The position numbers and the translations under genes were made by a program. From assembly GCA_039029455.1 (NCBI GenBank), contig JBCCGE010000001.1:2151-66150 (forward strand): DNA of 64,000 nucleotides, read 5' to 3'. This DNA comes from Pseudomonadota bacterium. Its GTDB lineage: Bacteria; Pseudomonadota; Gammaproteobacteria; Arenicellales; Poriferihabitantaceae. Positions within the stretch are counted from its first letter, which is position 1. Each line of letters begins with the position of its first letter. Below the pieces are notes generated by a model. It was not told where the DNA came from, ran no database searches, and was given only the letters and a program-made list of their open reading frames with translations. Positions 850 through 55,570 of the stretch are shown in pieces.

Positions 850-1019
850 TTTACGTTTACAACTTTTGAATTGTGCGAATTGTGATTGCACAGACGGATG
901 ACATAGCCGCCTCCCAGTTGATTACTGAAGCCGGGAGGACACCAGAACCCTGTCGCAAAGTCGAATAGAAAAACTAAGGCGGAACATCTTCACTGCATTT
1001 CTTCCCTGCAAAATGTGCG

Positions 1020-1829: not shown

Positions 1830-1919
1830 TACTGACGCTTCAATACAAATGAGTTACTGCAATTCGTGAATATTACCTCGGTGCTTTTCTTCACTCGTGA
1901 AATGATATAAGACCACAGT

Positions 1920-2516: not shown

Positions 2517-2565
2517 ATCAGGTTTGACCTCTGCAGTATCTGATTCGAGTGCGGTCCCGTTAGCG

Positions 2566-18291: not shown

Positions 18292-18393
18292 ATTTGTTTA
18301 CAAAAATGAAACATTGTATTTCCGAAAAAAGCCAGTTTACAAGCTAATACCGTTGACTCAAAATTTCATTTATCTGAATCTGACCTGTCGACA

Positions 18394-23974: not shown

Positions 23975-25449
23975 TGAAACGATACCAGTATTTTGCGAAT
24001 AACGAGTGGCACGATCCCGACTCGGGTCAATATATCGACAGCGAAAACCCTGCGTTGGGTGAGGTCTGGGCTCAGATTCCCGACTGCAATCAAAGTGATA
24101 TTGATCGTGCAGTGGCCGCTGCGAAAGATGCATTTTATCGAGGTCCATGGGGGCGAATGATGTCCGCTGAGCGCGGGCGGCTGATGCGACGAATGGGTGA
24201 CGTCATATCAAAATATGCGGATCATCTCGGTGAGATCGAAACCCGGGACAACGGCAAGCTGCCGAAAAATATTACGCCGTCTTTAAAGCCTGCGGCATGG
24301 CAGGTCGACAGTTTCCACTACTACGGCGGGATGTGTGACAAGTTTGAAGGCAGTCTGATACCAGCCGAGGCGCCGGATATTCACAACTACCTGAAATGGG
24401 AGCCGTTTGGTGTCTGCGGTTTGATCCTGCCGTGGAACTCGCCACTGGGCACACTGATCTGGAAACTCGCGCCCTGTCTGGCTGCGGGCAATACCGTGGT
24501 CATGAAACCTTCAGAGCAGTCGTCGTGTTCGACACTCGAGTTGATGAACGTGTTGCTTGAAGCAGATCTGCCACCCGGTGTTTTGAATGTGGTGACAGGC
24601 TACGGTCCGACCACCGGTGAGCCGCTGCTCGATCATGATGATGTGCGAATGGTGTCGTTTACCGGCGGAACAGCTGGAGGCAGGGCGGCCGCGGCCGTTG
24701 CCGCGCGCAAGATCAAACCAATCGTTATGGAACTCGGTGGAAAATCCCCTCAGATCGTCCTGCAGGATGCAGATCTTGACCTCGCGGTGAACGGAGTAGC
24801 TTCGGGTATTTTTCCGGCAGGGGGGCAAAGCTGCATCTCGGGTTCACGTCTGCTGGTGCATCAATCCGTTAAAGATGACTTTGCCTCCCGGCTGGTCGAT
24901 ATTGTACAGAAGGCGAAGGTTGGCGATCCGACGGACTGTGCGACTCAGATTGGACCGATGGCGAACCGGCCACACTATGAGCGCGTGCTGGAGAAGATTT
25001 CCGCTGCGGAAGCGGCGGGTCACCGTTTGTTGCTGGATGGCCGATCGGCGTGTCGAGATCGGGGTTACTACATCGGCCCTACGATTTTTGCTGACGTGCC
25101 AAACGATTCCGAGCTGGCGCAAACGGAGGTATTCGGTCCGGTGGTGTCGATCGAAAGCTGGAGTGATGAAGACGAGGCAATTCGCATTGCAAACGACACA
25201 GACTACGGATTGGCAGCGGGAATCTGGTCGCGTGACGTAGGCAAGGCAATGAGATTGGCGGACCGAATTGAGGCCGGTACCGTCTACATTAACAATTATT
25301 TCAATGCGGCGACGCAGTCACCGGTCGGTGGGTACAAGCAGTCCGGCTACGGTCGGGAAAACGGCTTTGAGGGTATGCGCTGTTTCATGCAGACCAAATC
25401 AGTCTGGTTGTCGACAAATCCTTCGCAACCCGATCCGTTTGCGAGCTGA
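23971..25449 (+). CDS. NAD(P)-dependent aldehyde dehydrogenase
   Basis: VMELGGKSPQIV and GGQSCISGSRLLV (catalytic Cys), EVFGPV and PVGGYKQSGYGRE blocks. 4-bp overlap with the upstream gene. Confidence 0.9.
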   Translation: MMKRYQYFANNEWHDPDSGQYIDSENPALGEVWAQIPDCNQSDIDRAVAAAKDAFYRGPWGRMMSAERGRLMRRMGDVISKYADHLGEIETRDNGKLPKNITPSLKPAAWQVDSFHYYGGMCDKFEGSLIPAEAPDIHNYLKWEPFGVCGLILPWNSPLGTLIWKLAPCLAAGNTVVMKPSEQSSCSTLELMNVLLEADLPPGVLNVVTGYGPTTGEPLLDHDDVRMVSFTGGTAGGRAAAAVAARKIKPIVMELGGKSPQIVLQDADLDLAVNGVASGIFPAGGQSCISGSRLLVHQSVKDDFASRLVDIVQKAKVGDPTDCATQIGPMANRPHYERVLEKISAAEAAGHRLLLDGRSACRDRGYYIGPTIFADVPNDSELAQTEVFGPVVSIESWSDEDEAIRIANDTDYGLAAGIWSRDVGKAMRLADRIEAGTVYINNYFNAATQSPVGGYKQSGYGRENGFEGMRCFMQTKSVWLSTNPSQPDPFAS

Positions 25450-25466
25450 GTCTTTTTACAGGCGCA

Positions 25467-26582
25467 ATGACGGTCACCACACACACGCCGGTACGTTCAA
25501 AGTTAGAGCTGGATGGCGCGCGGGTGGATGTGAAATCATCTGATGCCGTCAATATCGTTGTGCGCATTTTTCAGTCCCTGGGCTGCAGTCCGGAGACAGC
25601 AGTTACGGTGGCAGAACATCTTGCGGACACCAGTCTTTGCGGAATGGAGAGTCACGGTTTAATGCGCACCTTGCAGTATGCAGAGCAGTTTCGCACGGGC
25701 TACATGGATGCGAGTGCGGTACCTGAAGTGATTCACACTGATCGGGGTACGATTGAAGTCAGCGGGCGCGGCGGTATTGGCATTCCTGCTATGGCGCTGG
25801 CTTATGAAACCGGAATGCATTTTGCGAAAAAATCCGGTGTTTCGGCGTTGTCCGTTCGGGACGCCGGACACACGGGGCGGCACGGAGCGTTTGCGGATAG
25901 CGCCGCGGAAAAGGGGTACCTCACGATTTGCCTCGGCGGTGGCAATCGCCATATCTGGCGACAGGTCGCACCGCACGGGGGTGCACGGGGTATGTTGCCG
26001 ACAAATCCCTGGTGTGCGGGGGTACCGGGTGGTGAACGAGGCCCGGTGGTAATGGATTTCGCGACGTCAAAAATTGCCGGTGGCTGGATATACGCGGCCA
26101 AAAGTGCCGGCGCCCTGTTGCCGGAAGGCTGCATCATTGACCGTGATGGAAACCCCACCCGGAGCCCGGACGACTACTTCGACGGTGGAGCAATCCTGCC
26201 CTCCGGTGCTCAAAAAGGTTATGCGCTTGCACTTGTCGCGGAACTGATAGGGGAAGCCATGCTCGGTCCGTCATCCACGGAGTGCAATTGGCTACTCATT
26301 ACATTGGATGCCACGAAATTCAGACAACCGACGGCAATGCAGTCTGCTGCAGAGGCCGTGCTTGACGAGCTGCGTAGCTGCCCGCCTGCCCCGGGGTTTG
26401 ACCGGGTGGAGATCCCGGGTGAACGAGAACGAGACTATCGCCAGCGATCGGCAGGTGTTATTTCGGTGCCCGAGCAGACCTGGAAGCAGATACTCGAATT
26501 GGAATCAGATACCAGGCAGCCGGTCCCGAAATCGGGATCGGCAATAAAATTACATCCACTGAATTCATCAGAGAGGTCGTGA
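25467..26582 (+). CDS. Ldh_2 family oxidoreductase (malate/L-lactate/sulfolactate dehydrogenase type 2)
   Basis: GMESHGLMR, DAGHTGRHG, TNPWCAGVP and GAQKGYALALVAELIGEAMLG are typical Ldh_2 blocks. Confidence 0.8.
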   Translation: MTVTTHTPVRSKLELDGARVDVKSSDAVNIVVRIFQSLGCSPETAVTVAEHLADTSLCGMESHGLMRTLQYAEQFRTGYMDASAVPEVIHTDRGTIEVSGRGGIGIPAMALAYETGMHFAKKSGVSALSVRDAGHTGRHGAFADSAAEKGYLTICLGGGNRHIWRQVAPHGGARGMLPTNPWCAGVPGGERGPVVMDFATSKIAGGWIYAAKSAGALLPEGCIIDRDGNPTRSPDDYFDGGAILPSGAQKGYALALVAELIGEAMLGPSSTECNWLLITLDATKFRQPTAMQSAAEAVLDELRSCPPAPGFDRVEIPGERERDYRQRSAGVISVPEQTWKQILELESDTRQPVPKSGSAIKLHPLNSSERS

Positions 26583-27551
26583 ATGACTGAGCCCGCAGTC
26601 GCAGACGCGAAATATCAACCTGCATATGTGCAGACACCCCCCATCTTTGCCTGGCCGCCGAGGTTGCTGGCTTCGCTGAAGTACCTGACATTGGGCATGC
26701 TCTATCCGTGGGGATTCTTTTATCTTCTCATCGCGGTGCCGACATGGGCCTATCTGACACCATCGCTTCAGACTATGGCCACGTTCGAGCCGGGATGGCT
26801 GGCCCTGCTATGGATACGAAACTGTGTTTTCATTTGCCTGTTTGCCGGTGCACTGCAGTGGCATTTCCACATCCGAAAAGCCCAGGACGCAAAATACAGA
26901 ATTAACCGAAAAGAACTGTCGGAGAATAATCCTCTGTTCTTGTGGGGCAATCAGGTTCGCGACAACATGTTCTGGACCATTGCCTCCGGTGTCACCGTCT
27001 GGACGGCCTACGAGGCAGTGACCTGGTGGATGTATGCCAACGGGCGGGTCGTTCTGGAATACAACCTGATCTGGTTTGTTGCCAGCATCTATATTTTATT
27101 CTTCTGGTCCACGTTTAATTTCTACTGCGTGCACCGTGTTCTGCATTTCCCGGGTGTGTACAAACACGTTCACGAACTGCATCACCGCAATGTGGATGTC
27201 GGACCGTGGTCAGGTATTTCCATGCACCCGGTAGAACATCTGCTGTATTTCACGCCGTTTGTATTGTGGTGGTTTGTACCAGTCCACCCGGTGATCATCC
27301 TGATCACCGGGTTTTATCAGGCGCTGAATCCGGCACTCTCACACTCAGGTTATGACTATCTGGAAGTTGGTCCATTGAAACTCAAAACCGGTGACTGGTT
27401 TCATCAACTGCATCACCAGTATTTCAATCTAAACTACGGCAACACCCCGACACCTATTGATAAAGTATTCGGCAGTTGGCACGATGGCAGCAGAGAATCC
27501 ATGAAGATTCAGCAGGCACGCATCCGCGAAAGGCGCCGACAATCTGCCTGA
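26583..27551 (+). CDS. fatty-acid hydroxylase / sterol desaturase superfamily membrane di-iron oxygenase
   Basis: Has N-terminal TM helices and three histidine boxes: HRVLH, HELHHRN and HQLHHQYF. ATG directly follows the upstream TGA. Confidence 0.8.
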   Translation: MTEPAVADAKYQPAYVQTPPIFAWPPRLLASLKYLTLGMLYPWGFFYLLIAVPTWAYLTPSLQTMATFEPGWLALLWIRNCVFICLFAGALQWHFHIRKAQDAKYRINRKELSENNPLFLWGNQVRDNMFWTIASGVTVWTAYEAVTWWMYANGRVVLEYNLIWFVASIYILFFWSTFNFYCVHRVLHFPGVYKHVHELHHRNVDVGPWSGISMHPVEHLLYFTPFVLWWFVPVHPVIILITGFYQALNPALSHSGYDYLEVGPLKLKTGDWFHQLHHQYFNLNYGNTPTPIDKVFGSWHDGSRESMKIQQARIRERRRQSA

Positions 27552-27581
27552 ATCTAAATACCGACATAAAACATAAATATC

Positions 27582-28415
27582 ATGAAAAGAATCTACGATT
27601 TCAGCCGCAGTCCGGCCCGCCGTAACTACACAGTTTCAGATCTTCAGGCGTTGAAAGGGTCGGGCAAAAAATTAAGCATGAGTAACCCGGCGAATGCGGC
27701 AGAACTTCAGGCCTGCATCGATTCCGGCATCGATCTTCTGGTGGTGTGGGACAGTCAGATTGAGGAGGTGCGACAGATTGCGCCCAATCATTTTATGGGC
27801 GTCGGCAGCACCTGGTCACAGTTCGGTGATCCAAAAGACATTCTCGAGCACGCGTTCGATATGATGCGCAAAGGTGGCGATATGTACTACACACTGCGCT
27901 CTTATGAGGTGATGGAGATGCTGGCTAAAGAGGGTATTCCGGTACAAAGCCACATCGGACTGATTCCCACATTCAGTCACTGGTGCGGCGGTTTGCGAGC
28001 TTTCGGGCGGACTGCAGAAGAGGCGATGGAAATCTACCGGACACTCAAACGTATGGAAGATGTCGGCGTGTTTGCCGTGGAAGCGGAATGCATTGCGGAA
28101 GAGGTGCTGGAGGCCGTCAATGACAAGACGTCCATCGTGACGTTTTCGCTGGGATCCGGCATGTCCGGGGACGTCATCATGTCGTTCGTCAAGGACATTT
28201 GCGGTGAGAACAGTGAAGAAGACAAGCCGCCCAAACACGCCCATGCGTTTGGCAATCTGCAGCGACTGCACGATCAGATCTACGAAGAACGGGTTGCCGC
28301 GCTAAAGGAATTTCATGACGAGGTTGTGGCAGAGAACTTTCCCTACGCAGCAACCAACGTGTCGATGCATCCGGATGAAAAAGACAAGTTTCTGGAAGCT
28401 CTGGATAAAAGCTGA
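27582..28415 (+). CDS. divergent ketopantoate hydroxymethyltransferase (PanB)-family protein
   Basis: GIPVQSHIGLIPTFSHWCGGLRAFGRTAEEA...VGVFAVEAECIAEEV...VTFSLGSGMSGDVIMSFVKDICG parallels PanB blocks (IPV.GHIGLTPQ..GG....GR, E.VP, IGIGAG..DGQVLV..D). The N-terminal region is divergent. Confidence 0.6.
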   Translation: MKRIYDFSRSPARRNYTVSDLQALKGSGKKLSMSNPANAAELQACIDSGIDLLVVWDSQIEEVRQIAPNHFMGVGSTWSQFGDPKDILEHAFDMMRKGGDMYYTLRSYEVMEMLAKEGIPVQSHIGLIPTFSHWCGGLRAFGRTAEEAMEIYRTLKRMEDVGVFAVEAECIAEEVLEAVNDKTSIVTFSLGSGMSGDVIMSFVKDICGENSEEDKPPKHAHAFGNLQRLHDQIYEERVAALKEFHDEVVAENFPYAATNVSMHPDEKDKFLEALDKS

Positions 28416-29594: not shown

Positions 29595-30155
29595 TTGATT
29601 TCAAGTCAAAGACGACGATATTTTATCGGCGCTGATGTTGTGAGTAGAGTTGTTTTTGCGATACTGTTCTTACTCGCGGTATCGCAAGTGCTTGCACAGC
29701 AAACCGTAGTAGTCATACCTTTGGGTGACAGTGAGCTTGAGATCGAACCCACCGCACCAATGGCTCGGGCCGATACGGTTAGTCGCGACTATACGATTTT
29801 ACCCAATACGGTTATCGACAACTTAACTGGACTGGAATGGCAGCGTCTGGACGACGATACAACTCGCGAATGGATTCCTGCGATCAGTTATTGTCGGAAT
29901 CTTGTGCTTGATAGCCATTCCGACTGGCGCCTGCCAACGGTTGTTGAACTGCATTCGATTGTGGACTATGGAAGTTCTGCCGCAGCCATTGAGCAAGTTG
30001 CATTTCCAGGAACCAATTCTTCATTGTATTGGTCAAGATCTGTACCGGCGGGAAGCGCCATCGGAGATTTCGTGAATTTTAATACCGGCGGTATTAATGA
30101 CGTCTTAGTCATTTCGGCACAATTCCTTGTTCGCTGTGTTCGGGAGCCATCATGA
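29595..30155 (+). CDS. DUF1566 (Lcl C-terminal domain) secreted protein
   Basis: Has a signal peptide (VVFAILFLLAVSQVLAQQ). LEWQR, W..A..YC..L, DWRLPTVVELHSI, YWS and VRCVR are the DUF1566 hallmarks. TTG start. Confidence 0.7.
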   Translation: MISSQRRRYFIGADVVSRVVFAILFLLAVSQVLAQQTVVVIPLGDSELEIEPTAPMARADTVSRDYTILPNTVIDNLTGLEWQRLDDDTTREWIPAISYCRNLVLDSHSDWRLPTVVELHSIVDYGSSAAAIEQVAFPGTNSSLYWSRSVPAGSAIGDFVNFNTGGINDVLVISAQFLVRCVREPS

Positions 30156-30667
30156 TGTGTTTTCAAAAACATTCGGGGGTCTCATCAACACAACATGCCG
30201 CCCCCATTCCGATCAGTTGTTCTATTCGTATGTTCAAATTAATTTGGGTTATCGTGATCGGCATGCTGATCACAGTCATAAATACATCATGGGGACAGGC
30301 GAAGTCCTGGAGCGACAACGACAACGGCACAGTGAACGATTTTGCGACAGGCCTGATGTGGCAGCAGGATGATGATGACGTCGCTCGAAGTTTTGTTGGC
30401 GCGGTGAGTTACTGTGAAAATCTGACTCTTGGCGGAAAAACAGATTGGCGGTTGCCCAATGTCAAGGAATTGAGAACCCTGGGTTACGATCTTGCCGTTT
30501 CGCCCAGAATCAGCAGTGCAGAGTTTCCGGACACGGAAACATCAGAGTACTGGTCCGTCACGGGTGCGTCCGGCAGTCCATTGGTGGCCTGGCATGTCGA
30601 TTTCAACAACGGTACGGTAGCTACCGGCAATGTCAGCGAAACTCACTTTGTCCGGTGTGTTCGGTGA
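30152..30667 (+). CDS. DUF1566 (Lcl C-terminal domain) secreted protein, paralog of upstream gene
   Basis: LMWQQ, YCENL, DWRLPNVKELRTL, YWS and VRCVR. ATGA overlap with the upstream stop. The likely real start is ATG 30230, which precedes the signal peptide MFKLIWVIVIGMLITV. Confidence 0.7.
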   Translation: MMCFQKHSGVSSTQHAAPIPISCSIRMFKLIWVIVIGMLITVINTSWGQAKSWSDNDNGTVNDFATGLMWQQDDDDVARSFVGAVSYCENLTLGGKTDWRLPNVKELRTLGYDLAVSPRISSAEFPDTETSEYWSVTGASGSPLVAWHVDFNNGTVATGNVSETHFVRCVR

Positions 30668-30820: not shown

Positions 30821-31321
30821 TTAACCGATCACAGCAGAAATAGCATTCAGCAAAGCATCCGCCTGGGCACTGGGTACATGCACGCGTGCGGTGTTTTCGT
30901 TGATCCGGTACAGTAAAACGGAGATTCCAAACCACAATCGTGATACTGATGCGGAAGGTAGGCTCAGATCAATCTCTGCGCCGCGCCGGAGAAATTCAAG
31001 CAGAGACTCGCTACTGATATCAAACACGCGATAGGCATCACTGACATCCGAAATAGCCTGATTGAGTTCATCGTCCCAGCCATCGATCATCTCCGGGCCG
31101 TTAACCAGCATGATGCGGTCTCGTCGAATGGAAAGCGCATAACGTTCTGTACTGATGATATCCGGCCATTCGACAACCTGTAGGTTCATCTGTGCCCGAA
31201 CCTTCGGCCCGGATAGCAGAACCTGACGCAGTGCTGGTGCTGCACTTATCGCGACAGACGACGAGCACGGAAGTTGTGAGTCATTGCGGGGAGCAGACCA
31301 GATGGCGGTGTCGTTACGCAT
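30821..31321 (-). CDS. soxG: sarcosine oxidase subunit gamma
   Basis: Last gene of the soxBDAG order, of the right size class. I place the start at ATG 31321, an 8-nt overlap with the soxA end. The ORF is open to 31423, but that would overlap soxA by 110 nt. Confidence 0.7.
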   Translation of the reverse strand: MRNDTAIWSAPRNDSQLPCSSSVAISAAPALRQVLLSGPKVRAQMNLQVVEWPDIISTERYALSIRRDRIMLVNGPEMIDGWDDELNQAISDVSDAYRVFDISSESLLEFLRRGAEIDLSLPSASVSRLWFGISVLLYRINENTARVHVPSAQADALLNAISAVIG

Positions 31322-34097
31322 CGAGTAATTCCCCTGTCGGATCATAAAAGCAGGGCGCGCAAATCCGGGCGGACTGAGTGCTTCCTGTGTGCCAGACGTC
31401 GACCTCTTCGCCACTGCGTTCAAACCCGTTTTCTACCAGCGCCAGCGCAATTGGATGATCCAGTGTCGGGCTGAAATAGCTCGAGGTCACATAGCCCTGT
31501 GAGCTACCGTTGTTGACGACGTGAGCTCCCGTGATCAGCGGCGAGGCGCCCTCGGCAGTCATCAAACCAACCAGCTGTTTCCGATTCGGTGAGTTGGCGT
31601 GCGCGGTATGCAGACTGCGATCTCCCAGAAACGCAGTCGATTTTTTCAGTCTGGGAACGCCGAATCCAAGATCATGGGGCATGGTTTCACCGTCCGTATC
31701 TTTGCCGATCACGATATACCCTTTCTCGGCTCTGAGAATCAGCAAGGCTTCAGAACCCATAAGACCACCGCCGTGTTTTCGAACCCCCGCGGCTAATGTC
31801 TCCCACAGCATTTGCGCACAGGACTGTCGTATCGACAGCTCGAAACTGCAGTCACCGGTAAAGCTGACGCGGGCGATCCGCAGAGGTTCGCCGTTCCATT
31901 GGTGTTCAATCATTGTCATGTGCGGAAAGCGCTGCGATTGCCATTCCATATCCGGCAGGAGTTCGCTGATTACGGGTCGGGCTGACGGACCGGTCACGGT
32001 CAGCGTTGCCCAGTGATGCGTGGTGTCGTGAATGAAAATCCGATCCGGGTTGTTGCCGTCCTGTCGCCAGGCCTCGAGATGGGTGCGCACACCGTCTACG
32101 TGACTGGAGGAGCAGGAGATCAAAAAACGGTCGCTCCCCATGCGCGTAATTACTCCGTCATCGTAGATCGCGCCACTTTCTGTGAGCATGAACCCGTATC
32201 TAATCTGCCCGGGTTTCAGGGTTGAAACGGTGTTGTAGTAGATAAAATTGACGAAGGCTTCGGCATCGGGACCCATGACTTCAATTTTGCCCAGCGGCGT
32301 GCCGTCAAAAAGCGCAACGGCTGATCGGGCTGTCCTGACTTCCGCCGCAATTCGGTCCTTCGTATCGCCCGCACCAAACCAGCCCGGTCGCAACCACCCG
32401 CCGTATTCACACAACGCGGCATCTTCCCGTCGATGGATGTGTTCGAGTGGCAGCCGCTTCAGCGAGTGCCGGTTTCGCCCGTGGAGTGGTCCATGGTACA
32501 GCTCAATCGGAACGGGCACGAACGGCGGTCGAAACGTGGTCGTGCCCACATCGGGAACGGAACGCGCGCGAATTGACGCCATCGCCGCGAGTCCTGCCAT
32601 GTTGGAGGTCTTGCCCTGATCCTGCGCCATACCCAGCGTGGTGTAACGCTTCAGGTGCTCTACGGAGATGTAATTCTCGCGGGCCGCCAGTTCAACATCC
32701 TTTAGTGTCACGTCATGTTGAAAATCGATCCATTGACGGCCCGGGCTGCCGGGTTTGGGCCAGACAGGTTCCGTTCGGAATGAGCAAACGGGTCGTGAAA
32801 CTGATTCACCACGCCCGACGCGTTGTGCATGCTCCAGTGCGGGTTCGAGTGTAAACACTCCATTTGCGGCGCCGACCACCTGAATGTACTCGGGTCCCGT
32901 GGCCGGAAGGAACGCCTGGCATGGCGCATTCCATTCCAAAGCGCCGCCCGCATGCCGCCATAAATGAACTGTCGGCGTCATTCCGCCGGAACTCACAATA
33001 GTGTCCACGCGGTGATAATCACGACCCTGATAGATGCCTTTGATGTGCTTGCGGCCGGCAATGCGAAGCGGCGCGTCTTTGACCGGGTCAATGCGCACGA
33101 TCTCGGCACCCGCATCGTGTAACAGCTGTTCCGACGAATCGGCGAAACTGTTGTTTGATACCAAAGCCATTCGTTTCCCGACCAGGACGTCATGTCGTGC
33201 AAGGTAGTCACAGCTCGCCTGCACAGACAGACTGCCGGGTCGGTCGTTGTTGGCAAAGGTGACCGGACGATCGATGGCGCCGGTTGCAAGAATGATCTGC
33301 CCAACGCGCATTCGAATAAGCCGGGGTGCGACGCCAAATGCGTTTTGCTGGACGAGTCCAACGAGCTGATGGTCGAACACGCCAAATGCGGTCGTCGATG
33401 ACAGGATGCGACCGCCGGCCGACTGAATTGCCGCACGTTGACTGCCGATCCACTCGCGAGGTGACTCGCCTTCAATCACGCTCATCTGCAGCAAACCTCC
33501 TCCGAGATCAGGGTGGTCATCAACCAGGCAGGTGTCTCGTCCGGACTCGGCGGCCGCTCGAGCCGCCACCAGGCCGGCTGCACCTCCGCCAACGACAAGC
33601 ACATCGCAACGGTCGTGTGTTTGTTCTGATCGGTAGCGTTGAAACACATCATCAGTCACTGCGCCCAGTCCCGCCATTCGACGAATGGACGGTTCAAACA
33701 TGTGCCAGTGCGGCCACATAAAGGTCTTGTAGTAGAACCCGGCGGTCAGCCATCGGTGAAACAGGTCCAGTACACCCTTTAGATCGTGATTTGCCGAGGG
33801 CCATGCATTGACGGAACGCGCGTGCATACCGTCTTCGAGAATCGTTGTCGCCGCCGCACAGTTCGGCAGTTCACAATCCCCAAGTCGGACACTCATGATG
33901 GCGTTCGAATCCTCTACCCACGAGCCCCAGGGCCCGCGAGGGCGGTGGTATTTGAAACTGCGTCCCATGATGCGAACGCCATTTGCCAGCAAGGCCGAGG
34001 CCAGTGTGTCGCCTTCGCGGCCCTCATAGGATTTGCCGTCAAATGTAAATCGCAGGCCTTCCGTCGATGCGACGGTCTTGATCCGGTACGAGGTCAT
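31314..34097 (-). CDS. soxA: sarcosine oxidase subunit alpha
   Basis: N-terminal FTFDGKSYEGREGDTLASALLANGVRIMGRSFKYHRPRG, an NAD/FAD Rossmann fold (DVLVVGGGAAGLVAA), and a C-terminal GcvT-like folate domain. Confidence 0.92.
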   Translation of the reverse strand: MTSYRIKTVASTEGLRFTFDGKSYEGREGDTLASALLANGVRIMGRSFKYHRPRGPWGSWVEDSNAIMSVRLGDCELPNCAAATTILEDGMHARSVNAWPSANHDLKGVLDLFHRWLTAGFYYKTFMWPHWHMFEPSIRRMAGLGAVTDDVFQRYRSEQTHDRCDVLVVGGGAAGLVAARAAAESGRDTCLVDDHPDLGGGLLQMSVIEGESPREWIGSQRAAIQSAGGRILSSTTAFGVFDHQLVGLVQQNAFGVAPRLIRMRVGQIILATGAIDRPVTFANNDRPGSLSVQASCDYLARHDVLVGKRMALVSNNSFADSSEQLLHDAGAEIVRIDPVKDAPLRIAGRKHIKGIYQGRDYHRVDTIVSSGGMTPTVHLWRHAGGALEWNAPCQAFLPATGPEYIQVVGAANGVFTLEPALEHAQRVGRGESVSRPVCSFRTEPVWPKPGSPGRQWIDFQHDVTLKDVELAARENYISVEHLKRYTTLGMAQDQGKTSNMAGLAAMASIRARSVPDVGTTTFRPPFVPVPIELYHGPLHGRNRHSLKRLPLEHIHRREDAALCEYGGWLRPGWFGAGDTKDRIAAEVRTARSAVALFDGTPLGKIEVMGPDAEAFVNFIYYNTVSTLKPGQIRYGFMLTESGAIYDDGVITRMGSDRFLISCSSSHVDGVRTHLEAWRQDGNNPDRIFIHDTTHHWATLTVTGPSARPVISELLPDMEWQSQRFPHMTMIEHQWNGEPLRIARVSFTGDCSFELSIRQSCAQMLWETLAAGVRKHGGGLMGSEALLILRAEKGYIVIGKDTDGETMPHDLGFGVPRLKKSTAFLGDRSLHTAHANSPNRKQLVGLMTAEGASPLITGAHVVNNGSSQGYVTSSYFSPTLDHPIALALVENGFERSGEEVDVWHTGSTQSARICAPCFYDPTGELLDA

Positions 34098-34360
34098 TCG
34101 TGATCCCGTCGCAGTGCGCGCACCTCAATCACCTCCATGGTGACGCTGTCGCGCTCCATCACAAACAGCTCAGCACAGGTCATGTGCATCCACACTTCTT
34201 TGACCCGGCCTTTTTCATTACGCTGGGTATGCAGATACTGCGCCCATTCGGAGTCGCTGACATCGGCCGTGGTGTCCGGTCGGGTTTTTCCAAGCTCTCC
34301 GGCAAAGTGAAATTCACGCTCGTCTCGGGGCCCGCAAAATGGACAGGGAAATATCTGCAT
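34094..34360 (-). CDS. soxD: sarcosine oxidase subunit delta
   Basis: 88 aa with MQIFPCPFCGPRDEREF zinc motif. ATGA overlap with soxA. Confidence 0.9.
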   Translation of the reverse strand: MQIFPCPFCGPRDEREFHFAGELGKTRPDTTADVSDSEWAQYLHTQRNEKGRVKEVWMHMTCAELFVMERDSVTMEVIEVRALRRDHE

Positions 34361-34369
34361 GACCGTGCG

Positions 34370-35620
34370 TTAGTGAGGGATACCTGAGGCGGCACCTTCA
34401 TCCACCAGAAACCCGGTAGAGAAGCGGTCGAGGTCAAACGGGCGGCTGAGCGCATGGTGCTGCCCGGTGGCGATCAAGTGTGCGAGCAAATACCCGCCTA
34501 CAGGAATTGCCTTGAAACCGCCGGTACCCCATCCACAGTTTAAATACAGACCCTTCAGTCCGGATGGCCCGATGATGGGGGAACTATCCGGTGTGACATC
34601 GACAATGCCCGCCCAGTGGCGCAATAACTTGACCCTTGCCAGCGATGGCATCATCTCGGCGAGCCCGCCCAGAACCGCTTCCTGCATCGGCAGGTTGCCG
34701 CGCTGTCCGTAAGACGGTACACGATCCAGACCGCCGCCAATCACCAGTCCACCTTTGTCGGACTGACTGACGTAGGTTCCAAACGGCGGACACAGCACGA
34801 CCGTGTTGAGTACGGGTTTGATGGATTCGGAGACAAACGCCTGCAGTGCATAGGAGTGGATGGGTAGCCCTACGCCGGCCATGGATGCCAGCACCGAGCT
34901 GTGACCGGCGACTGCAGCGCCAACAGCGCCCGCTCTGATTTCACCACGGGACGTGTTGACACCGACACACTGGCCGCCCTCGACGAGAAAGTCCAGCACT
35001 TCACAGTTTTGAATGATATCAACGCCCCTTGCATCGGCCGCTCGCGCAAGTCCCCATGCCACCGCATCATGGCGTGCTGTACCCGCACGTTTTTGCAATA
35101 CGCCACCGTGAATCGGATATCGCATCTGCGGACTGAAGTTGAGCCTCGGCTCCAGTTTCTGCACCTGGTCGGCGTCCAGCAGCTCTGCATCAACACCGTT
35201 CAGTCTCATGGCATTCGTTTGCCGGGCCGCCATCTCCATTTCAGGTTCGGAGTGCGCGGTTACAATCATGCCGCGCTGTGAAAACATGATGTTGTAGTTC
35301 AGCTCGCGGGACAGTCCCTCATAGAGTTGGACCGACTTGTCGTACAGCGCTGCGCTTTGCGGATAAAAGTAATTGGATCGGATCGCTGTGGTGTTGCGCC
35401 CGGTATTGCCGCCACCAAGCCAGCCTTTCTCAATTACGGCGACATGGGTAATGCCGTGTTTCCGCGCCAGGTAATAGGCCGTCGCCAGACCGTGACCGCC
35501 GCCGCCGATGATGACCGCGTCGTACGCGGATTTTGGTTCCGGAGTGCGCCACGCCGGCGTCCAGCCGCGGTGACCTCGGAGGCCCTCACGCAGTAAACTG
35601 AGCGCGGAATACCGTTTCAT
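34370..35620 (-). CDS. soxB: sarcosine oxidase subunit beta
   Basis: YDAVIIGGGGHGLATAYYLA FAD fold, a WRTPEPK N-terminus and a GWGTGGFK block, typical of heterotetrameric SoxB. Confidence 0.92.
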   Translation of the reverse strand: MKRYSALSLLREGLRGHRGWTPAWRTPEPKSAYDAVIIGGGGHGLATAYYLARKHGITHVAVIEKGWLGGGNTGRNTTAIRSNYFYPQSAALYDKSVQLYEGLSRELNYNIMFSQRGMIVTAHSEPEMEMAARQTNAMRLNGVDAELLDADQVQKLEPRLNFSPQMRYPIHGGVLQKRAGTARHDAVAWGLARAADARGVDIIQNCEVLDFLVEGGQCVGVNTSRGEIRAGAVGAAVAGHSSVLASMAGVGLPIHSYALQAFVSESIKPVLNTVVLCPPFGTYVSQSDKGGLVIGGGLDRVPSYGQRGNLPMQEAVLGGLAEMMPSLARVKLLRHWAGIVDVTPDSSPIIGPSGLKGLYLNCGWGTGGFKAIPVGGYLLAHLIATGQHHALSRPFDLDRFSTGFLVDEGAASGIPH

Positions 35621-36201
35621 GATTCAGAATTCGTGTCCTGTGCAAATGCAAATCGACGATACTGGGCCAGCAGGTCGGGACTCGGTTCCTCGCCGGTGAA
35701 ACCGCGCAGGTAACCCTCGAGACGATTCATTCGCTCTTCCATGGGTTCTCGCACGTCGAGCGCGTGATAACCGAGCTGCATGTAGTAGATAATGCGCGCA
35801 CGAATCTCGGCGTCATAGTCTGAAAAACCGTGTCTGGCGAACATTACAGTGATAGCGTTCAGTCGCGTTTTGTCAGCGACGTCGATACGAGTGCGCACTG
35901 TCTTGTCGCGTCGCGCCCATTCGCGCACGGCAAAATCCAGCCCACAATGAAACATGTCGGCATCGAGAAATGCCGCGAAAAAGTTGCACGCCGCCTCACC
36001 AATGCTGTCGGCAGATTTGTCGCACGCGTTTACGATGGATTGGGTGTTTCGTTGTTCCCAGTCGTCGAGAAGAGCCTGCAGCAGCTGCTTTCGACTTTTG
36101 AAATACCAGTAAAAACTCGAACGGGATACGCCCAGCTGGTTACTCAGAGTCAGCACCTTGACTTCGGCAACGCCCTCATTGACCAGCACGTTCCGCGCCA
36201 C
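35617..36201 (-). CDS. TetR family transcriptional regulator (start codon uncertain, probably further upstream)
   Basis: HTH LSNQLGVSRSSFYWYFKSRKQLLQALL. The stop overlaps the soxB ATG (ATGA at 35617-35620). The first canonical start is GTG 36201, but the frame stays open and TetR-like (KVTREDWLN) up to 36369. See findings. Confidence 0.8.
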   Translation of the reverse strand: MARNVLVNEGVAEVKVLTLSNQLGVSRSSFYWYFKSRKQLLQALLDDWEQRNTQSIVNACDKSADSIGEAACNFFAAFLDADMFHCGLDFAVREWARRDKTVRTRIDVADKTRLNAITVMFARHGFSDYDAEIRARIIYYMQLGYHALDVREPMEERMNRLEGYLRGFTGEEPSPDLLAQYRRFAFAQDTNSES

Positions 36202-36299
36202 GTTGAGCCAGTCTTCCCGTGTGACCTTGACGTGGCCAACTAGCGGCGCCTTGTCAGGGTCGTCGCGATGCAGGATCGGTATGGCCTGGCGTGCGATGG

Positions 36300-37865
36300 T
36301 CAGTGCTCCGGAGACGCACCACCCTCGGCGGTGCGTTTTGCGATAAACGCCGCCAACGCTTCGCGTCGGTCACCGTCGGTGTCTGGCGGAGTGAATTCAT
36401 TCACAATGCGTTTCCAGACCTGCGTGGCTCGATCCGCCGTAGTCTGCGCACCGCGCTCCTGCCAGGTTCCAAAGTTGGTGTAATCGTGGACGATCGGTTC
36501 GTAGAATTCGCTGGTGTATCGTTCCATGGTTTGCGGTGCCGAGAAAAAATGACCGCCGGGCTCGACCTGCGTCAGTGCAGTCTCATAACCGATCTCACTG
36601 GTTCCGGCCTGTGCACCCGCGCAGAGTTCAGCCACCATATTCAATACCTCAGTGTCGGTAATCAGTTGTTCGTAGGACACCGTCAGTCCGCCCTCCAGCC
36701 ATCCGGCGGAGTGAATGACGACCGTGGCACCGGCCATCAGGCATCCCCAGAGTCCAAACTGGTTTTCATTGGCCGCCTGGGCATCGCAGAGATTTGCCGC
36801 CGAGCCCGCTGCCGATCGCCAGGGCAATCCTAAAGATCGCGCCAGTTGGCCCGCAGCCAGGGACGCCTGGAAATGCGCCGGCGTGCCGAATGCCGGCGAG
36901 CCCGACTTCATGTCGACGTTTGACGTAAAGGTCCCGTAGCAGACCGGTGCACCGGGGTTGGCCAGTTGGGTGAGCGCGATGGCCGCCAGTGCTTCAGCGT
37001 GGCTCAGCGTAATCGCTCCAGCGACTGTAATCGGCGCCATCGCCCCCATCAGGGTGAACGGCGTCACTATGGACATCTGTCCGTGCCGGGCGAAGTCGAT
37101 CAGTCCCTGCGCCATCAGGTTATCGATCGTTCTCGGGCTATTGGTGTTGATGATGGTGTAGCAGTGCGGCTCGCGGTAAAACTCAGCGTCAGCGAGTCCA
37201 CGAAAATCGCGAACCATCTCGAAGCAATCCTGAACCTGAGACTTGCCGCGGGAAAACACGAACGGGAACTTGTCCGACAGCGTCATCTGCATTTCGGTGG
37301 TGAAATAGTGACGCAGATGAGTCGGTACATCCTGCGGTTCAACCTGTGGCGATACCATATGAAACACATCGAAATGTTGTGTCAGCATCAGATACTCGCG
37401 GTAGTCACGCGCCGATCCAGGGCGCCGTCCGCGTTCGAGATCGGTTGCATTGGGTGCGCCGGCACCGGCCTGGAATACCAGACTGCCGAGCTGGAGTACC
37501 ATATCGCGCTTTCTTGACCCTGCCCTGCAGGTAATGGATGTCGGCGCGCTCTGCAGCGCAGCTTCGATAATTTCGCGACCGATCGACACCATATGGGTTG
37601 ACGGATCAACGCTTGCACCGGCTGCGGCATAGAGCGCTCGAGCCTCTGGCAACAGCACCTTGATGCCTTTTTCCTGCAGAACTTTCAGCGCGTTCTCGTG
37701 CATGTCGGCGATCTGATCCGCCGAAAACACATCCATTGGCGGAAACGGATTGCGCAGCTCGCGATAGTTTACCTCCCGACTTGCAGGCGCTGCTTTCTCC
37801 GCGCTGCGTCCGCGTCGGCGTCTGCTGCGACCGTTGGCTGAAGGATCCCCGGTCATGGCGATCAA
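36300..37865 (-). CDS. MttB-superfamily methyltransferase, pyrrolysine-free (quaternary-amine/glycine-betaine type)
   Basis: The uninterrupted 521-aa ORF has no internal TAG. N-terminal NYRELRNPFPPMDVFSADQIADMHENALKVLQEKGIKVL and the overall length match the trimethylamine methyltransferase (MttB) fold family. TTG 37865 overlaps the upstream TGA; ATG 37856 is an alternative start. Confidence 0.85.
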   Translation of the reverse strand: MIAMTGDPSANGRSRRRRGRSAEKAAPASREVNYRELRNPFPPMDVFSADQIADMHENALKVLQEKGIKVLLPEARALYAAAGASVDPSTHMVSIGREIIEAALQSAPTSITCRAGSRKRDMVLQLGSLVFQAGAGAPNATDLERGRRPGSARDYREYLMLTQHFDVFHMVSPQVEPQDVPTHLRHYFTTEMQMTLSDKFPFVFSRGKSQVQDCFEMVRDFRGLADAEFYREPHCYTIINTNSPRTIDNLMAQGLIDFARHGQMSIVTPFTLMGAMAPITVAGAITLSHAEALAAIALTQLANPGAPVCYGTFTSNVDMKSGSPAFGTPAHFQASLAAGQLARSLGLPWRSAAGSAANLCDAQAANENQFGLWGCLMAGATVVIHSAGWLEGGLTVSYEQLITDTEVLNMVAELCAGAQAGTSEIGYETALTQVEPGGHFFSAPQTMERYTSEFYEPIVHDYTNFGTWQERGAQTTADRATQVWKRIVNEFTPPDTDGDRREALAAFIAKRTAEGGASPEH

Positions 37866-40276
37866 CCTCGCATAGCGTTGCCTTCGGGATCGTAAGGTGA
37901 CGGTGGAATCACTCTGGCCGTGCGCTCCTGTCCAACAATATGCACCGTCAGTTCATTGCCTTCATCGGTCTGATCGCGGTTCAGCATCGCCATGGCCAGT
38001 GACTTACCGATAGTGTGTCCGTATCCACCGGAGGTGACGAATCCCACCAGCTCACCGTCTTTCCAGACCGGTTCAAAACCGCTGGCATCGGCATCCGTTG
38101 CATCGATCTCGAGCGTGACCACACGTTGCGACGACCCTCCCGCATCGCGTTCTTTCAGGGCGGCATCACGGCCGATAAAGTCACCTTTGTCCCAGTCAAT
38201 CCAGCGGTCCATTCCGGTCTGCGCGGCGGTATAGCCCTGGGTGAACTCGGTGGACCAGATGCCGAAACTTTTCTCCAGACGCAGACTGAGCAACGCGTTG
38301 AATCCGACTTCGCGCAGCCCCAGATCAGCGCCGGCCTGAAGCAGGGTTTCGCGCAGGGTGATGTGTTCGGTGGCCGCACAGTGAATTTCATAACCCAGTT
38401 CGCCGGCAACGGACAATCTGCCCACCTTGACGCGCAACATGCCGATGTCAAACGTCCCGCAGCTCATGAATTTAAGATCGTCGACCGGGCCGTCGGTGAG
38501 CTTTTGCAGAATCTTCAGACTGTTGGGACCGGAAAGGCTGAAGCCGACCACGGAATCCGAGATGTCATTGACCTCGACGTCTTCACCCATATGATCGTGA
38601 AACCAGCGCATGTGCCAGGTGCGCAAATAGTAACTGCCCATAATCCACCAGGTGCCGTCTCCCCAGTTGAACACCGTGAGGTCACCTTTTAGTCGCCCGT
38701 CCGGGGCCAGCATCGGCGCCAGTCTGGCCCGTCCCGGTGCGGGCAGTTTTGACGCCATGAGCGTGTTTAACCAGGCTTCCGCACCTTCGCCCGTGACTTC
38801 ATACCGCGAAAACGCGGTGATATCCAATAGTCCTGCTGATGCACGCACGGCATTGCACTCCTCGGCGACTATTTCAAAGGCGTTTGATCGTTTCAGCGTG
38901 GGCGTTTCAACAAAATCACTGGTGGGCGCAAAGTAGAGCGGCAGTTCGAGACCGTAGCTCGCACCCCACTGACACCCGGCACGAGTCATTGCCGAATAGG
39001 CGGGTGCTTTATTCAGTGGTCGGCCCGCAGGCAGTTGCTCGTTGGGGTAGGTCATGACGAAACGGCGGGTGTAAAACTGACCCGTGGTTTCTCTGATGAA
39101 TTGTTTATTTTCAGCGTAGGGACCAAACCGGGCTACATCCATGCCATACACATCGGCTTCGGGTTCGCCGTGTATGATCCATTCCGCCAGAGATTTGCCG
39201 ACACCGCCGCCCTGAAGGTAGCCCGCCATCACAGCACAGGCGCACCAGTAACCCGGCTTGCCGCGCACCGGCCCAACCAGCGGGTTGCCGTCCGGCGCGA
39301 ATGTAAACGCGCCGTTTACCCAGCTTTTCACACCGACTTCCTGCAGAGCCGGATATCGCTCAAAGCCGAGCGTGAGTTCGTTTTCGATGCGATCGGGATC
39401 TTCCTGCTGAAGCTCAAAACCGTAATCCCATGATGCACCGTCCATCATCCAGTGCTCGTGATTGATTTCATAGATTCCGAGCAGTATTCCATTCTGGTCC
39501 TGACGCATGTAGGTAAACCCCTCAAGGTCTACGACCAGGGGTAGTTCCTTGTCGAGTGACTCCACGCCGGGAATCGTGTCCGATATGAGGTAGTGGTGGT
39601 TCAGGGGTGACAGCGGCAGTTCAATGCCGGCCATGCGTCCGACCTGCTTGGCCCAAAGCCCTGCTGCGTTGACCACGTGTTCGGCATGAATGGTGCCTTT
39701 CTCGGTAACAACATCCCATCCGTCTTTAGTTTGAATCAGCTCCAGTACGCGGTTGTGTTCAATCACCTGCGCACCGTGTTTTTTTGCCGCGCCTGCGTAG
39801 GCGTGCACGGTGCTGGTCGTGTCCACGTAGCCCTCGCGGTCTGCCCACATGCCACCGAGAATGCCGTGCGTCGACATGATTGGGCAGTGTTCTCCGGCCT
39901 CTTCGGGGGTGATTAGATGGACATCGTGAATGCCAATCGACTGGAAAACCCGATACGCTGATTGCAACCACTCCCAGCGATCGGGCGTACCCGCCAACGT
40001 CATGCCGCCGGTCATGTGCATGCCGACAGATTGACCCGACTCCTTTTCAATTTCCGAGAGCAGGTCAATGGTGTATGCCTGCAGTGAAGCAATATTGGGA
40101 TCGGCGTTGAGTGCGTGGAATCCACCCGCAGCATGCCAGCTTGATCCGGCCGTCAGCACCGATCGCTCAATCAGGCAGACGTCCTTCCAGCCGAACTTTG
40201 CGAGGTGGTACAACACGGATGCGCCGACGACACCCCCTCCGATAACGACAACGCGATAGTGAGAATTCATTTGCAA
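37862..40276 (-). CDS. dimethylglycine dehydrogenase-type FAD oxidoreductase fused to GcvT aminomethyltransferase domain
   Basis: YRVVVIGGGVVGASVLYHLAK DAO-type N-terminus. The C-terminal half is folate-binding and GcvT-like (VGFSLSGP, RLEKSFGIW, GFVTSGGYGHTIGKSLAM). 804 aa is the DMGDH/SARDH size. Confidence 0.9.
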   Translation of the reverse strand: MQMNSHYRVVVIGGGVVGASVLYHLAKFGWKDVCLIERSVLTAGSSWHAAGGFHALNADPNIASLQAYTIDLLSEIEKESGQSVGMHMTGGMTLAGTPDRWEWLQSAYRVFQSIGIHDVHLITPEEAGEHCPIMSTHGILGGMWADREGYVDTTSTVHAYAGAAKKHGAQVIEHNRVLELIQTKDGWDVVTEKGTIHAEHVVNAAGLWAKQVGRMAGIELPLSPLNHHYLISDTIPGVESLDKELPLVVDLEGFTYMRQDQNGILLGIYEINHEHWMMDGASWDYGFELQQEDPDRIENELTLGFERYPALQEVGVKSWVNGAFTFAPDGNPLVGPVRGKPGYWCACAVMAGYLQGGGVGKSLAEWIIHGEPEADVYGMDVARFGPYAENKQFIRETTGQFYTRRFVMTYPNEQLPAGRPLNKAPAYSAMTRAGCQWGASYGLELPLYFAPTSDFVETPTLKRSNAFEIVAEECNAVRASAGLLDITAFSRYEVTGEGAEAWLNTLMASKLPAPGRARLAPMLAPDGRLKGDLTVFNWGDGTWWIMGSYYLRTWHMRWFHDHMGEDVEVNDISDSVVGFSLSGPNSLKILQKLTDGPVDDLKFMSCGTFDIGMLRVKVGRLSVAGELGYEIHCAATEHITLRETLLQAGADLGLREVGFNALLSLRLEKSFGIWSTEFTQGYTAAQTGMDRWIDWDKGDFIGRDAALKERDAGGSSQRVVTLEIDATDADASGFEPVWKDGELVGFVTSGGYGHTIGKSLAMAMLNRDQTDEGNELTVHIVGQERTARVIPPSPYDPEGNAMRG

Positions 40277-40569
40277 TCTCCCGACAGTGTTTAAGTACAG
40301 GGTCGCTGACTACACGGAGCGCGACACTGGTATTAGACAGAACTGTACGGAGTATGGTTGTTATTGGACACAAATGTCTATAGGTTTGTGCAGAATTACT
40401 CGGGTTCGCGTCCGGATCGGGATTGCCGCGCCTTCGGCTCGCAGTGACTGCAGAGGCATGGGGCAACCCGGTTGATTAAGCCCAGGGCGCTAACAGTGAC
40501 ATTGCGAGGAGCCCCGCGCCGTGGCAATCTGTATCTAATGCAGAAACAAAACCACGTTTAGTCAGCGCG

Positions 40570-46900: not shown

Positions 46901-47096
46901 GTGTCACGGGGGAGTGTTCACGATTTGCGAGGCACCATAGTCGTGCCGGATTGTTCTTACACGTTAAGGCACTGTAGCATATTCGGCTGATACAGATATC
47001 TGGGCTGTGAGGACTGTGACCGAACTCTGCACCTACGCAGCGCAAATATTATTACTGAATGAGCACCACAAATTGAGCAATAAGAAATCACCTAAA

Positions 47097-48029
47097 ATGG
47101 GCGGACTGTTTGGTGGGTCGCTGACCGGAAATTTTTTAGGTTTGCCCGCTGAGTTGAACGATGGATGTTTCGCCGATATCGTGCTGATGGGCGCCCCCGT
47201 CGCAACACCTTACCGTTCCGTTGGTCCCTACTGTGCCGATGCACCAGATGCAATCCGCTCGGCGTTTGGCTGGCCCGGTGTGCTCGATCATCACGACTTC
47301 GACCTTGATGGTACCGTGTTGCATAGCGGCACCACCGCAGTTGACATAGGAAACCTGTCGTTCAGCGAGACCGATTTCGCGGCAAATCGTGAGACGATTC
47401 GGGCAAGTGTTGCTGGAGCGCTTGATAACGGATCGGTTCCCTTAGTTCTCGGCGGCGACGACTCTACTCCGATACCTGTTTTGCAGGCCTACGAAAAGCA
47501 CGGACCGATCACTGTGCTCCAGTTTGATGCCCATATTGATTGGAGAGACGAAGTCTCGGGAGAACGAATGGGCCTGTCCAGTAACATGCGACGGGCGTCC
47601 GAGATGCCCTGGGTTGAGCGCATTGTGCAGGTCGGTGCTCGCGGTATCGGTAGCGCGCGACCTGCGGATGTACAGGATGCGCTTGATTGGGGGGTTCATT
47701 TCGTGTCGATGTCAACGTATGTCGCGCAGGGTCTCGCCTCCTTAATGGCTCATATCCCCGATGATTCGAAAGTGTTTGTGACCTTCGACATCGATTGTAT
47801 GGATCCATCGGTGGTACCCGCGGTCATTGGTCCGGCGCCGGGAGGTTTCCACTATTGGCAGGTGATAGAGATCCTGCGAAAGCTGGCAGATAAAGCGCGC
47901 ATTGCGGGATTTGATTTGGTTGAACTGATGCCCGCGAACGATATAGGTGGCCGTGGCGCTTTGGTCGCAGCCCGTCTTGTCGCGGTTATGATGGGCCTGA
48001 TCAGTCGACAAAAGCAGTCGCGCCTATGA
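47097..48029 (+). CDS. agmatinase/arginase (ureohydrolase) family protein, guanidino-acid hydrolase type
   Basis: Mn-site blocks are present: LVLGGDDSTPIP, QFDAHIDWRD, TFDIDCMDPSVVPAV and GFDLVELMP. ATG 47097 is preferred over GTG 47007. Confidence 0.85.
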   Translation: MGGLFGGSLTGNFLGLPAELNDGCFADIVLMGAPVATPYRSVGPYCADAPDAIRSAFGWPGVLDHHDFDLDGTVLHSGTTAVDIGNLSFSETDFAANRETIRASVAGALDNGSVPLVLGGDDSTPIPVLQAYEKHGPITVLQFDAHIDWRDEVSGERMGLSSNMRRASEMPWVERIVQVGARGIGSARPADVQDALDWGVHFVSMSTYVAQGLASLMAHIPDDSKVFVTFDIDCMDPSVVPAVIGPAPGGFHYWQVIEILRKLADKARIAGFDLVELMPANDIGGRGALVAARLVAVMMGLISRQKQSRL

Positions 48030-55393: not shown

Positions 55394-55570
55394 GGTGACG
55401 CCGCAGGCGCACGAGATCGCAGCGGCGTCTGTATGGCATACTTTGCGCATACCCATGTGTGCAGACACTGCCGCAGTCGCGACACCCGACTGTGTTTATT
55501 TGTGAGCCCCGCAATCAGTGTAAGTTCTCATCACAGCGTTCTATAGAACAAAATCACCCGCGGAGCTGAA

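Follow-up and report, generated by a model that had tools for sequence, protein, structure and literature searches.

A pyrrolysine-free MttB-like gene in a dimethylglycine and sarcosine catabolism block: a probable cobalamin-dependent quaternary-amine methyltransferase with partners encoded elsewhere

Introduction

What does a methyltransferase of the MttB superfamily do among genes for the breakdown of dimethylglycine and sarcosine, with none of its cobalamin (vitamin B12) partner genes nearby? The question is raised by a 64,000-nucleotide stretch of DNA from a gammaproteobacterial contig (JBCCGE010000001.1; the whole stretch is hereafter called the window), in which the gene at 36300-37865 lies between a gene for a dimethylglycine dehydrogenase (DMGDH)-like flavoprotein and a tetR-soxBDAG cluster. 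We favour, with moderate confidence, the reading that this gene encodes a cobalamin-dependent quaternary-amine methyltransferase, probably acting on glycine betaine, the partners of which are encoded elsewhere in the genome. The gene belongs to the MttB superfamily and has lost pyrrolysine; it is translationally coupled to the DMGDH-like gene and followed by tetR-soxBDAG, in a block that is kept across genera, and in its closest outgroup clade the MttB gene stands together with a complete set of B12 genes. The two parts of the reading differ in strength: a B12-dependent mechanism with distant partners is quite likely, and glycine betaine as the main substrate has a somewhat better than even chance.

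An earlier note on this DNA had held that all characterised MttB members without pyrrolysine come from anaerobes, a statement that is now out of date, since MtgB enzymes have been described in the aerobic roseobacter Ruegeria pomeroyi and in Phaeobacter inhibens (PMC12478193, bioRxiv 10.64898/2025.12.19.695462). In R. pomeroyi DSS-3, glycine betaine induces two pfam06253 proteins, MtgB1 (SPO2108, Q5LRL7) and MtgB2 (SPO2134, Q5LRJ3) (Mausz et al. PNAS 2025, PMC12478193). MtgB passes a methyl group of betaine to the corrinoid protein MtgC (SPO2160), from which the pterin-binding protein MtgD (SPO1863) moves it on to tetrahydrofolate; MtgC and MtgD are encoded at a distance from mtgB, are needed for growth on betaine and are also required for methionine synthesis; the two likewise serve a split methionine synthase (PMC12478193). 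Induced along with them are RamA (SPO2041), the DUF1638 protein SPO2162, MetF2 and proteins of cobalamin synthesis. The mtg genes lie scattered in both R. pomeroyi and P. inhibens, whereas other taxa have them in clusters, and a roseobacter genome can hold up to seven pfam06253 paralogues (PMC12478193). P. inhibens has four, mtgB1-4, again with dispersed partner genes (the system comprises PGA1_c14630, c13350 and c16040); a mutant lacking mtgB1 and gbcAB does not grow on betaine, and the three other paralogues fail to replace mtgB1 for this substrate (bioRxiv 10.64898/2025.12.19.695462). A corrinoid protein that is not encoded nearby is, in other words, the published norm for this group of aerobes.

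An intact MttB-superfamily gene without pyrrolysine

The gene under study is the following.

36300-37856, minus strand: non-pyrrolysine MttB-superfamily (MtgB-like) methyltransferase, 518 amino acids (PF06253, no in-frame stop)

The open reading frame (ORF) at 36300-37865 on the minus strand is intact, with 521 codons from a TTG at 37865 and no internal stop, and its product matches the Pfam family MTTB (PF06253) over the full length of the profile (positions 2-500 of 500, E 6.6e-198); the superfamily counts 6,794 cluster representatives at E <= 1e-3. The earlier description of a 521-residue, pyrrolysine-free MttB protein between DMGDH and tetR-soxBDAG is borne out with one amendment, in that translation likely starts at the ATG at 37856 rather than at the TTG, giving 518 residues. 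This ATG is the start of the public gene call, has a GAGG ribosome-binding site 9 nt on its 5' side and begins 5 nt past the TGA of the upstream DMGDH-like gene. A pseudogene was also considered and rejected in view of the intact frame, the ribosome-binding site and orthologues that are 60-79% identical across genera.

Public annotation names the gene 'trimethylamine methyltransferase family protein' or 'trimethylamine--corrinoid protein Co-methyltransferase', which speaks for an enzyme acting on trimethylamine, and the protein does share its Pfam family with the pyrrolysine enzyme of Methanosarcina (structure 7XCL, E 6.6e-39). That enzyme, however, has an in-frame UAG codon for pyrrolysine, trimethylamine as its substrate and an acceptor route that leads to coenzyme M, whereas the window protein has Gly354 at the pyrrolysine position and its gene has no in-frame amber codon. 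Against TIGR02369, the model of pyrrolysine-type trimethylamine methyltransferases, the product scores 274.3 bits and thus fails the cut-off of 525, and it retains the carboxylate-binding arginine of members without pyrrolysine, at the position of which the pyrrolysine enzyme has a tyrosine. The trimethylamine reading was therefore rejected and strikes us as extremely improbable.

A conserved block, probably for successive demethylations

The MttB gene is one of a run of minus-strand genes behind a divergent intergenic region; in the order of transcription, its companions are as follows.

40277-40569, no strand assigned: divergent intergenic region 5' of the DMGDH-like gene, with a candidate TetR operator and promoter by pattern match
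37862-40276, minus strand: DMGDH-like flavoprotein, first gene of the block (Pfam DAO + FAO_M + GCV_T + GCV_T_C fusion)
35617-36201, minus strand: TetR-family regulator (PF00440)
34370-35620, minus strand: sarcosine oxidase beta subunit SoxB (TIGR01373, 669 bits, above the cut-off of 529)
34094-34360, minus strand: sarcosine oxidase delta subunit SoxD (PF04267, E 5e-27)
31314-34097, minus strand: sarcosine oxidase alpha subunit SoxA, 927 amino acids (Fer2_4, SO_alpha_A3, GCV_T, GCV_T_C)
30821-31423, minus strand: presumed sarcosine oxidase gamma subunit SoxG, start uncertain (homologous to the ORF behind soxA in related loci)

The DMGDH-like protein combines an FAD oxidoreductase with a folate-binding aminomethyltransferase domain and matches the mammalian DMGDH structures 5L46 and 4PAB over its whole length (E 1e-150); its predicted role is to take a methyl group from the tertiary amine that the MttB enzyme would release. 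Further along, the tetR stop and the soxB start overlap by 4 nt, and the presumed SoxG shares 38-51% identity with the product of the ORF behind soxA in five related loci (L014, L020, L049, L054 and L080). Upstream of the block, a weak 15-nt inverted repeat (40360-40374 and 40385-40399) overlaps a minus-strand promoter-like site and is, by pattern match alone, a candidate TetR operator; promoter-like sites stand at chance level (5 found, 4.7 expected). An aerobic setting for the window is plausible, as hinted at by its genes for sarcosine oxidase, a TauD/GBBH-like dioxygenase, a luciferase-like monooxygenase and a fatty-acid hydroxylase.

The arrangement recurs well beyond the window. Among 80 related loci from a scan of species-representative genomes, a DMGDH-like gene lies directly upstream of MttB in 53 and a TetR gene directly downstream in 43; soxB and soxD follow TetR in seven (L003, L011, L014, L020, L049, L054 and L080), all of which except L020 have soxA as well. 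Carriers of the block include Ruegeria, Leisingera, Roseovarius, Jannaschia, Yoonia, Marinovum, Tateyamaria, one Phaeobacter and several metagenome-assembled genomes (MAGs). Second MttB copies in four loci (L027, L063, L069 and L077) were inspected for their neighbourhoods, which held nothing interpretable.

Cobalamin partners: absent nearby, present in the sister clade

That the window encodes neither a corrinoid protein nor a methyl-corrinoid:tetrahydrofolate methyltransferase had been proposed from reading its ORFs, and dedicated searches agree. A Pfam scan of some 54 ORFs over the full 64 kb returned no B12-binding, Pterin_bind, RACo, DUF1638, S-methyl_trans or Rieske domain. Six-frame tblastn of the window, seeded with MtgC, DUF1638, MetF_C, MtgD and RamA proteins from related loci, gave a best E of 0.1, and Rfam found no cobalamin riboswitch in the window. 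A regular-expression search of the window for the B12 motif DxHxxG...SxL...GG had a single match, a false positive that comes from the His/Asp-rich repeat HDDHKDEHDHGDDHDDH of a ZrgA-family zinc-uptake protein (61680-62534). The adjacent corrinoid protein and methylcorrinoid:tetrahydrofolate methyltransferase by which an MtgB system would be recognised were thus not found in the 64 kb by Pfam or tblastn. Nor are they close by in related alphaproteobacterial genomes: domain and tblastn searches of about 50 alphaproteobacterial loci detected no B12-binding gene within 10 kb.

These absences speak for another way of disposing of the methyl group, in which the enzyme would do without a dedicated corrinoid protein and would use either free cobalamin or direct transfer to tetrahydrofolate on the folate domain of the DMGDH-like protein. 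The tight translational coupling with a folate-binding protein is in keeping with such a route, as is the methylation of free cob(I)alamin by the MtgB of Desulfitobacterium hafniense in vitro (PMC13080624). A further point in its favour is provided by Leisingera sp. NJS204, the 151-kb repABC plasmid of which (NZ_CP035418.1) carries three MttB paralogues (L082-L084) and has no annotated corrinoid protein in the 139 kb examined. On this plasmid, RS20760 lies in a DMGDH-TetR block, RS21030 by MmgE/PrpD and hydantoinase genes, and RS21195 by mandelate-racemase-family genes.

Against a corrinoid-free route stands the chemistry of the family, in every characterised member of which the Co(I) supernucleophile is needed to demethylate a quaternary amine (PMC13080624), together with the genetic requirement for mtgC and mtgD in betaine use by two roseobacters. 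The nearest relatives of the window clade point the same way. In six loci of gammaproteobacterial soil MAGs (L059, L064, L065, L067, L069 and L077), a single run holds genes for an MttB protein 49-50% identical to that of the window, a corrinoid protein (PF02310 + PF02607), DUF1638, MetF_C, Pterin_bind and RACo/RamA. The phylogenetic placement among MttB clades that the earlier note had called for was carried out as a neighbour-joining tree rooted on the pyrrolysine enzyme; this MtgC-linked clade is the sister of the window clade, and D. hafniense MtgB, Sinorhizobium meliloti 4YYC and other paralogues fall outside both. Unlike the block in the window, the MAG operons have contiguous partner genes and no adjoining DMGDH or TetR gene. 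They are the nearest outgroup, and their pocket pattern is that of the window protein save for a serine in place of Ala135. Their pterin-binding protein (L059 13201-15826 and its equivalents in the other five) has 663 residues, with the Pterin_bind domain only at 378-601; it is preceded by a separate ORF with a methylenetetrahydrofolate reductase C-terminal domain (DUF5981), and a hydantoinase-like gene lies upstream of MttB.

Genomes that bear the block also encode MtgC. Locus L006 comes from Ruegeria atlantica CECT 4292 and locus L043 from Marinovum algicola FF3, which we take to be DSM 10251; neither has a B12 gene within 10 kb of the block. The MtgC proteins of R. atlantica CECT 4292 and M. 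algicola DSM 10251 are, respectively, 91% and 90% identical to SPO2160 (PMC12478193, Dataset S2). With MtgC in the genome and none within 10 kb, the partner must be encoded elsewhere in such genomes. Of the two alternatives put forward in the earlier note, the distant corrinoid partner thus agrees with the published roseobacter genetics and with the operons of the sister clade, and the different acceptor chemistry has found no support; we consider the corrinoid-free route very improbable. By analogy, the window enzyme would depend on a distant MtgC and MtgD. Overall, the likeness to roseobacter MtgBCD extends to a pyrrolysine-free pfam06253 protein in an aerobic proteobacterium, to the link with a DMGDH and sarcosine oxidase route, and to a corrinoid protein, pterin-binding methyltransferase, RamA and DUF1638 protein that do not adjoin it.

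The substrate pocket

The best guide to the substrate is the MtgB of D. hafniense (the DSY3156 system of MtgB, MtgC and MtgA; structures 2QNE and 9YCE), to which the window protein is about 32% identical (E 8e-73). In that enzyme, Y97 and F356 hold the ammonium group by cation-pi interactions and R312 and H348 hold the carboxylate; the variants Y97A and F356L have a Km raised several hundred-fold, and every characterised member with an acidic quaternary amine as its substrate shares R312, which does not hold for the aromatic pair (PMC13080624). The window protein has the same TIM-barrel fold and superfamily and keeps the carboxylate pair as R350 and H385, as do 84 of the 86 aligned homologues. 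It differs in that the D. hafniense system belongs to an anaerobe, has its partner genes adjacent and has Y97 and F356 where the window protein has A135 and G393, along with a tryptophan four residues after the histidine (W389 in the window protein) that is common to all proteobacterial homologues aligned. This tryptophan might stand in for F356. The loss of the aromatic pair is not peculiar to the window lineage but clade-wide, because every proteobacterial homologue aligned lacks it, including those that lie beside MtgC. Taken together, the pocket indicates a carboxylated quaternary amine, without singling out glycine betaine.

Which paralogue, and which substrate?

Whether the DMGDH-linked gene is the counterpart of MtgB1 or MtgB2 was judged indirectly, by identity arithmetic and gene context instead of direct alignment. 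The DMGDH-linked MttB proteins are 86-89% identical to one another among Ruegeria copies, and those of Marinovum and Roseovarius are 61-67% identical to the copies of three Ruegeria species and Leisingera. The best matches to R. pomeroyi MtgB1 and MtgB2 are at 79% and 75% in M. algicola and at 81-87% and 76-77% in Roseovarius (PMC12478193, Dataset S2). As these values of 75-87% exceed the 61-67% of the block copies, the matches must be other genes. SPO2108 (MtgB1) adjoins guaA and SPO2134 (MtgB2) is flanked by a hypothetical gene and one for an outer-membrane protein; guaA, sought as a synteny marker for MtgB1, was near none of the related MttB genes in the 80 loci.

Several of these observations weigh against our reading and have to be set out as such. 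Identity and context make it quite likely that the DMGDH-linked genes form a third group of paralogues and are not orthologues of MtgB1 or MtgB2: the gene contexts of MtgB1 and MtgB2 differ from the DMGDH-linked block, neither of them being in an operon with DMGDH and TetR, and the betaine-induced DMGDH genes SPO0635 and PGA1_c28230 are not numbered beside any mtgB. Both aromatics that hold the betaine nitrogen (Y97 and F356) are gone from the pocket. The sarcosine oxidase end of the block is also less than canonical, in that SoxA is short and matches TIGR01372 in two stretches (969 bits, below the cut-off of 1164) and nothing in Pfam matches the presumed SoxG at E <= 0.05. Since the DMGDH-linked gene is probably not an orthologue of either studied paralogue, its substrate is one that we infer.

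It could accordingly be asked whether the block serves another substrate by the same B12 chemistry with distant partners, as a parallel three-step N-demethylation of, for example, beta-alanine betaine, gamma-butyrobetaine or a carnitine-derived betaine, with an MtgB1 encoded elsewhere taking glycine betaine. The distinctness of the lineage and the missing aromatic pair would both fit, as would the up to seven roseobacter pfam06253 paralogues, the specificity of which is not assigned (PMC12478193), and the failure of the three further P. inhibens paralogues to substitute for mtgB1. There are also hints in the gene neighbourhoods, with a GBBH-like dioxygenase cluster in the window and, about 8 kb from the block on the NJS204 plasmid, genes of a carnitine-to-betaine route (BCCT transporter, carnitine 3-dehydrogenase, BKACE enzyme and acetoacetate-CoA ligase). 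Yet the immediate neighbours are the canonical enzymes of dimethylglycine and sarcosine, by the whole-length DMGDH match and a SoxB score above its cut-off, and the pocket change is shared with MtgC-adjacent homologues, which likewise have the tryptophan at the position of W389. We therefore hold a substrate other than glycine betaine to be rather unlikely and retain glycine betaine.

The earlier note had further suggested that the enzyme supplies the missing first step, from betaine to dimethylglycine. As a model for the family this is now published; for the window enzyme it is putative, the lineage being probably the third paralogue. The same step is carried out by GbcAB, a Rieske monooxygenase, and by BHMT/Bmt, which are unrelated proteins; the Pfam scan found no BHMT-type or Rieske GbcA-type gene in the window.

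A model for the block

In the mechanism that we propose, the TIM-barrel pocket of the MttB protein would take up a trimethylammonium compound with a carboxylate, most likely glycine betaine, R350 and H385 holding the carboxylate. The enzyme would move one methyl group of this compound to the Co(I) of MtgC, a separate corrinoid protein whose gene lies in another part of the genome. The pterin-binding MtgD would then hand the methyl group to tetrahydrofolate, while RamA and the DUF1638 protein would re-reduce oxidised cobalamin. Dimethylglycine would pass to the co-translated DMGDH-like enzyme and sarcosine to SoxBDAG, yielding glycine and two further one-carbon units, and TetR may regulate the block by sensing an intermediate of the pathway. 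We infer that MtgC and MtgD are present in the genome of the window, that the window lineage uses them and that glycine betaine is the substrate.

Host signal and mobility

The block and its surroundings seem to differ in their affinities. The flanking gene at 82-849, for a truncated Xaa-Pro peptidase, has its best named matches in Thiolinea and other gammaproteobacterial MAGs (77-79%), and the best matches of the block proteins are in Rhodobacteraceae (79% for MttB, 82-86% for DMGDH and SoxB). The GC content at third codon positions (GC3) is 0.61-0.66 across the block (30821-40276), with 0.53 for the presumed soxG, compared with 0.51-0.57 in most other window genes; it is high in the 22-28 kb cluster of the window as well. 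MAGs labelled Granulosicoccaceae, Oceanospirillaceae and Rhizobiaceae hold related copies, and so do Leisingera plasmids, eleven of which carry an orthologue of the block with 75-79% identity. One flanking gene and a modest shift in composition thus tentatively suggest that the block has spread horizontally without B12 machinery.

Taken further, DMGDH-MttB-TetR(-SoxBDAG) could be a 'plug-in' for demethylation that is complete in itself and spreads horizontally. At its centre would be a third MtgB-like lineage with a substrate preference of its own, other or broader than glycine betaine, and the module would work only in hosts already equipped with the MtgC/MtgD/RamA core by way of their split methionine synthase. 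The plasmid-borne copy in Leisingera, the island of higher GC3 in the window and the lack of the D. hafniense aromatic pair are compatible with this extension, which we regard as possible but doubtful.

Other genes of the window

At 17413-28415, separated by 3 kb from the sox side of the block, a minus-strand LysR gene is followed by an eight-gene plus-strand run that encodes an isocitrate/isopropylmalate-dehydrogenase-like protein, a GMC oxidoreductase, the GBBH-like TauD dioxygenase (PF06155 + PF02668), a thiamine pyrophosphate (TPP) enzyme, an aldehyde dehydrogenase (ALDH), Ldh_2, a fatty-acid hydroxylase and a PanB-like protein. This run has the look of an operon for breaking down a hydroxylated or quaternary amine; on the Leisingera plasmid, too, GMC, TPP and ALDH genes are mixed in with the block copy. 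The region at 82-3660 has a gene of the creatinase/Xaa-Pro-peptidase family, cut off by the start of the window, then a standalone DUF1989 gene and a gene of the histone-deacetylase family (acetylpolyamine amidohydrolase-like), an arginase-family gene lies at 47007-48029 and amidase genes occur elsewhere in the window, which suggests a region rich in the catabolism of amines and guanidino compounds.

Between 8930 and 14372 are encoded a 931-residue protein of the Orn/Lys/Arg decarboxylase family, a 550-residue protein with a faint ATP-grasp match and an AAT-family (acyl-CoA:6-APA acyltransferase-like) protein. Just beyond the sox end, at 29595-30667, stand two tandem genes for Lcl_C-domain proteins, the first with an unusually low GC3 of 0.42. 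A 1109-residue protein with FG-GAP repeats and fn3, BACON_2 and Laminin_G_3 domains (52139-55468) is probably a surface or adhesion protein.

Outlook

How aerobic marine bacteria without GbcAB or a true BHMT carry out the first demethylation of betaine was open until 2025 and is now answered by MtgBCD. The present locus is a further, putative sister lineage of this known system; it fits the published answer and raises no new question. Work so far has apparently dealt with a different MttB paralogue from the one that is tied most closely to dimethylglycine and sarcosine genes, and the module of the latter appears to move between replicons and classes without its B12 machinery. Marker-gene surveys now pool all pfam06253 matches as mtgB, and predictions of B12 dependence for osmolyte turnover hinge on which paralogue does what.

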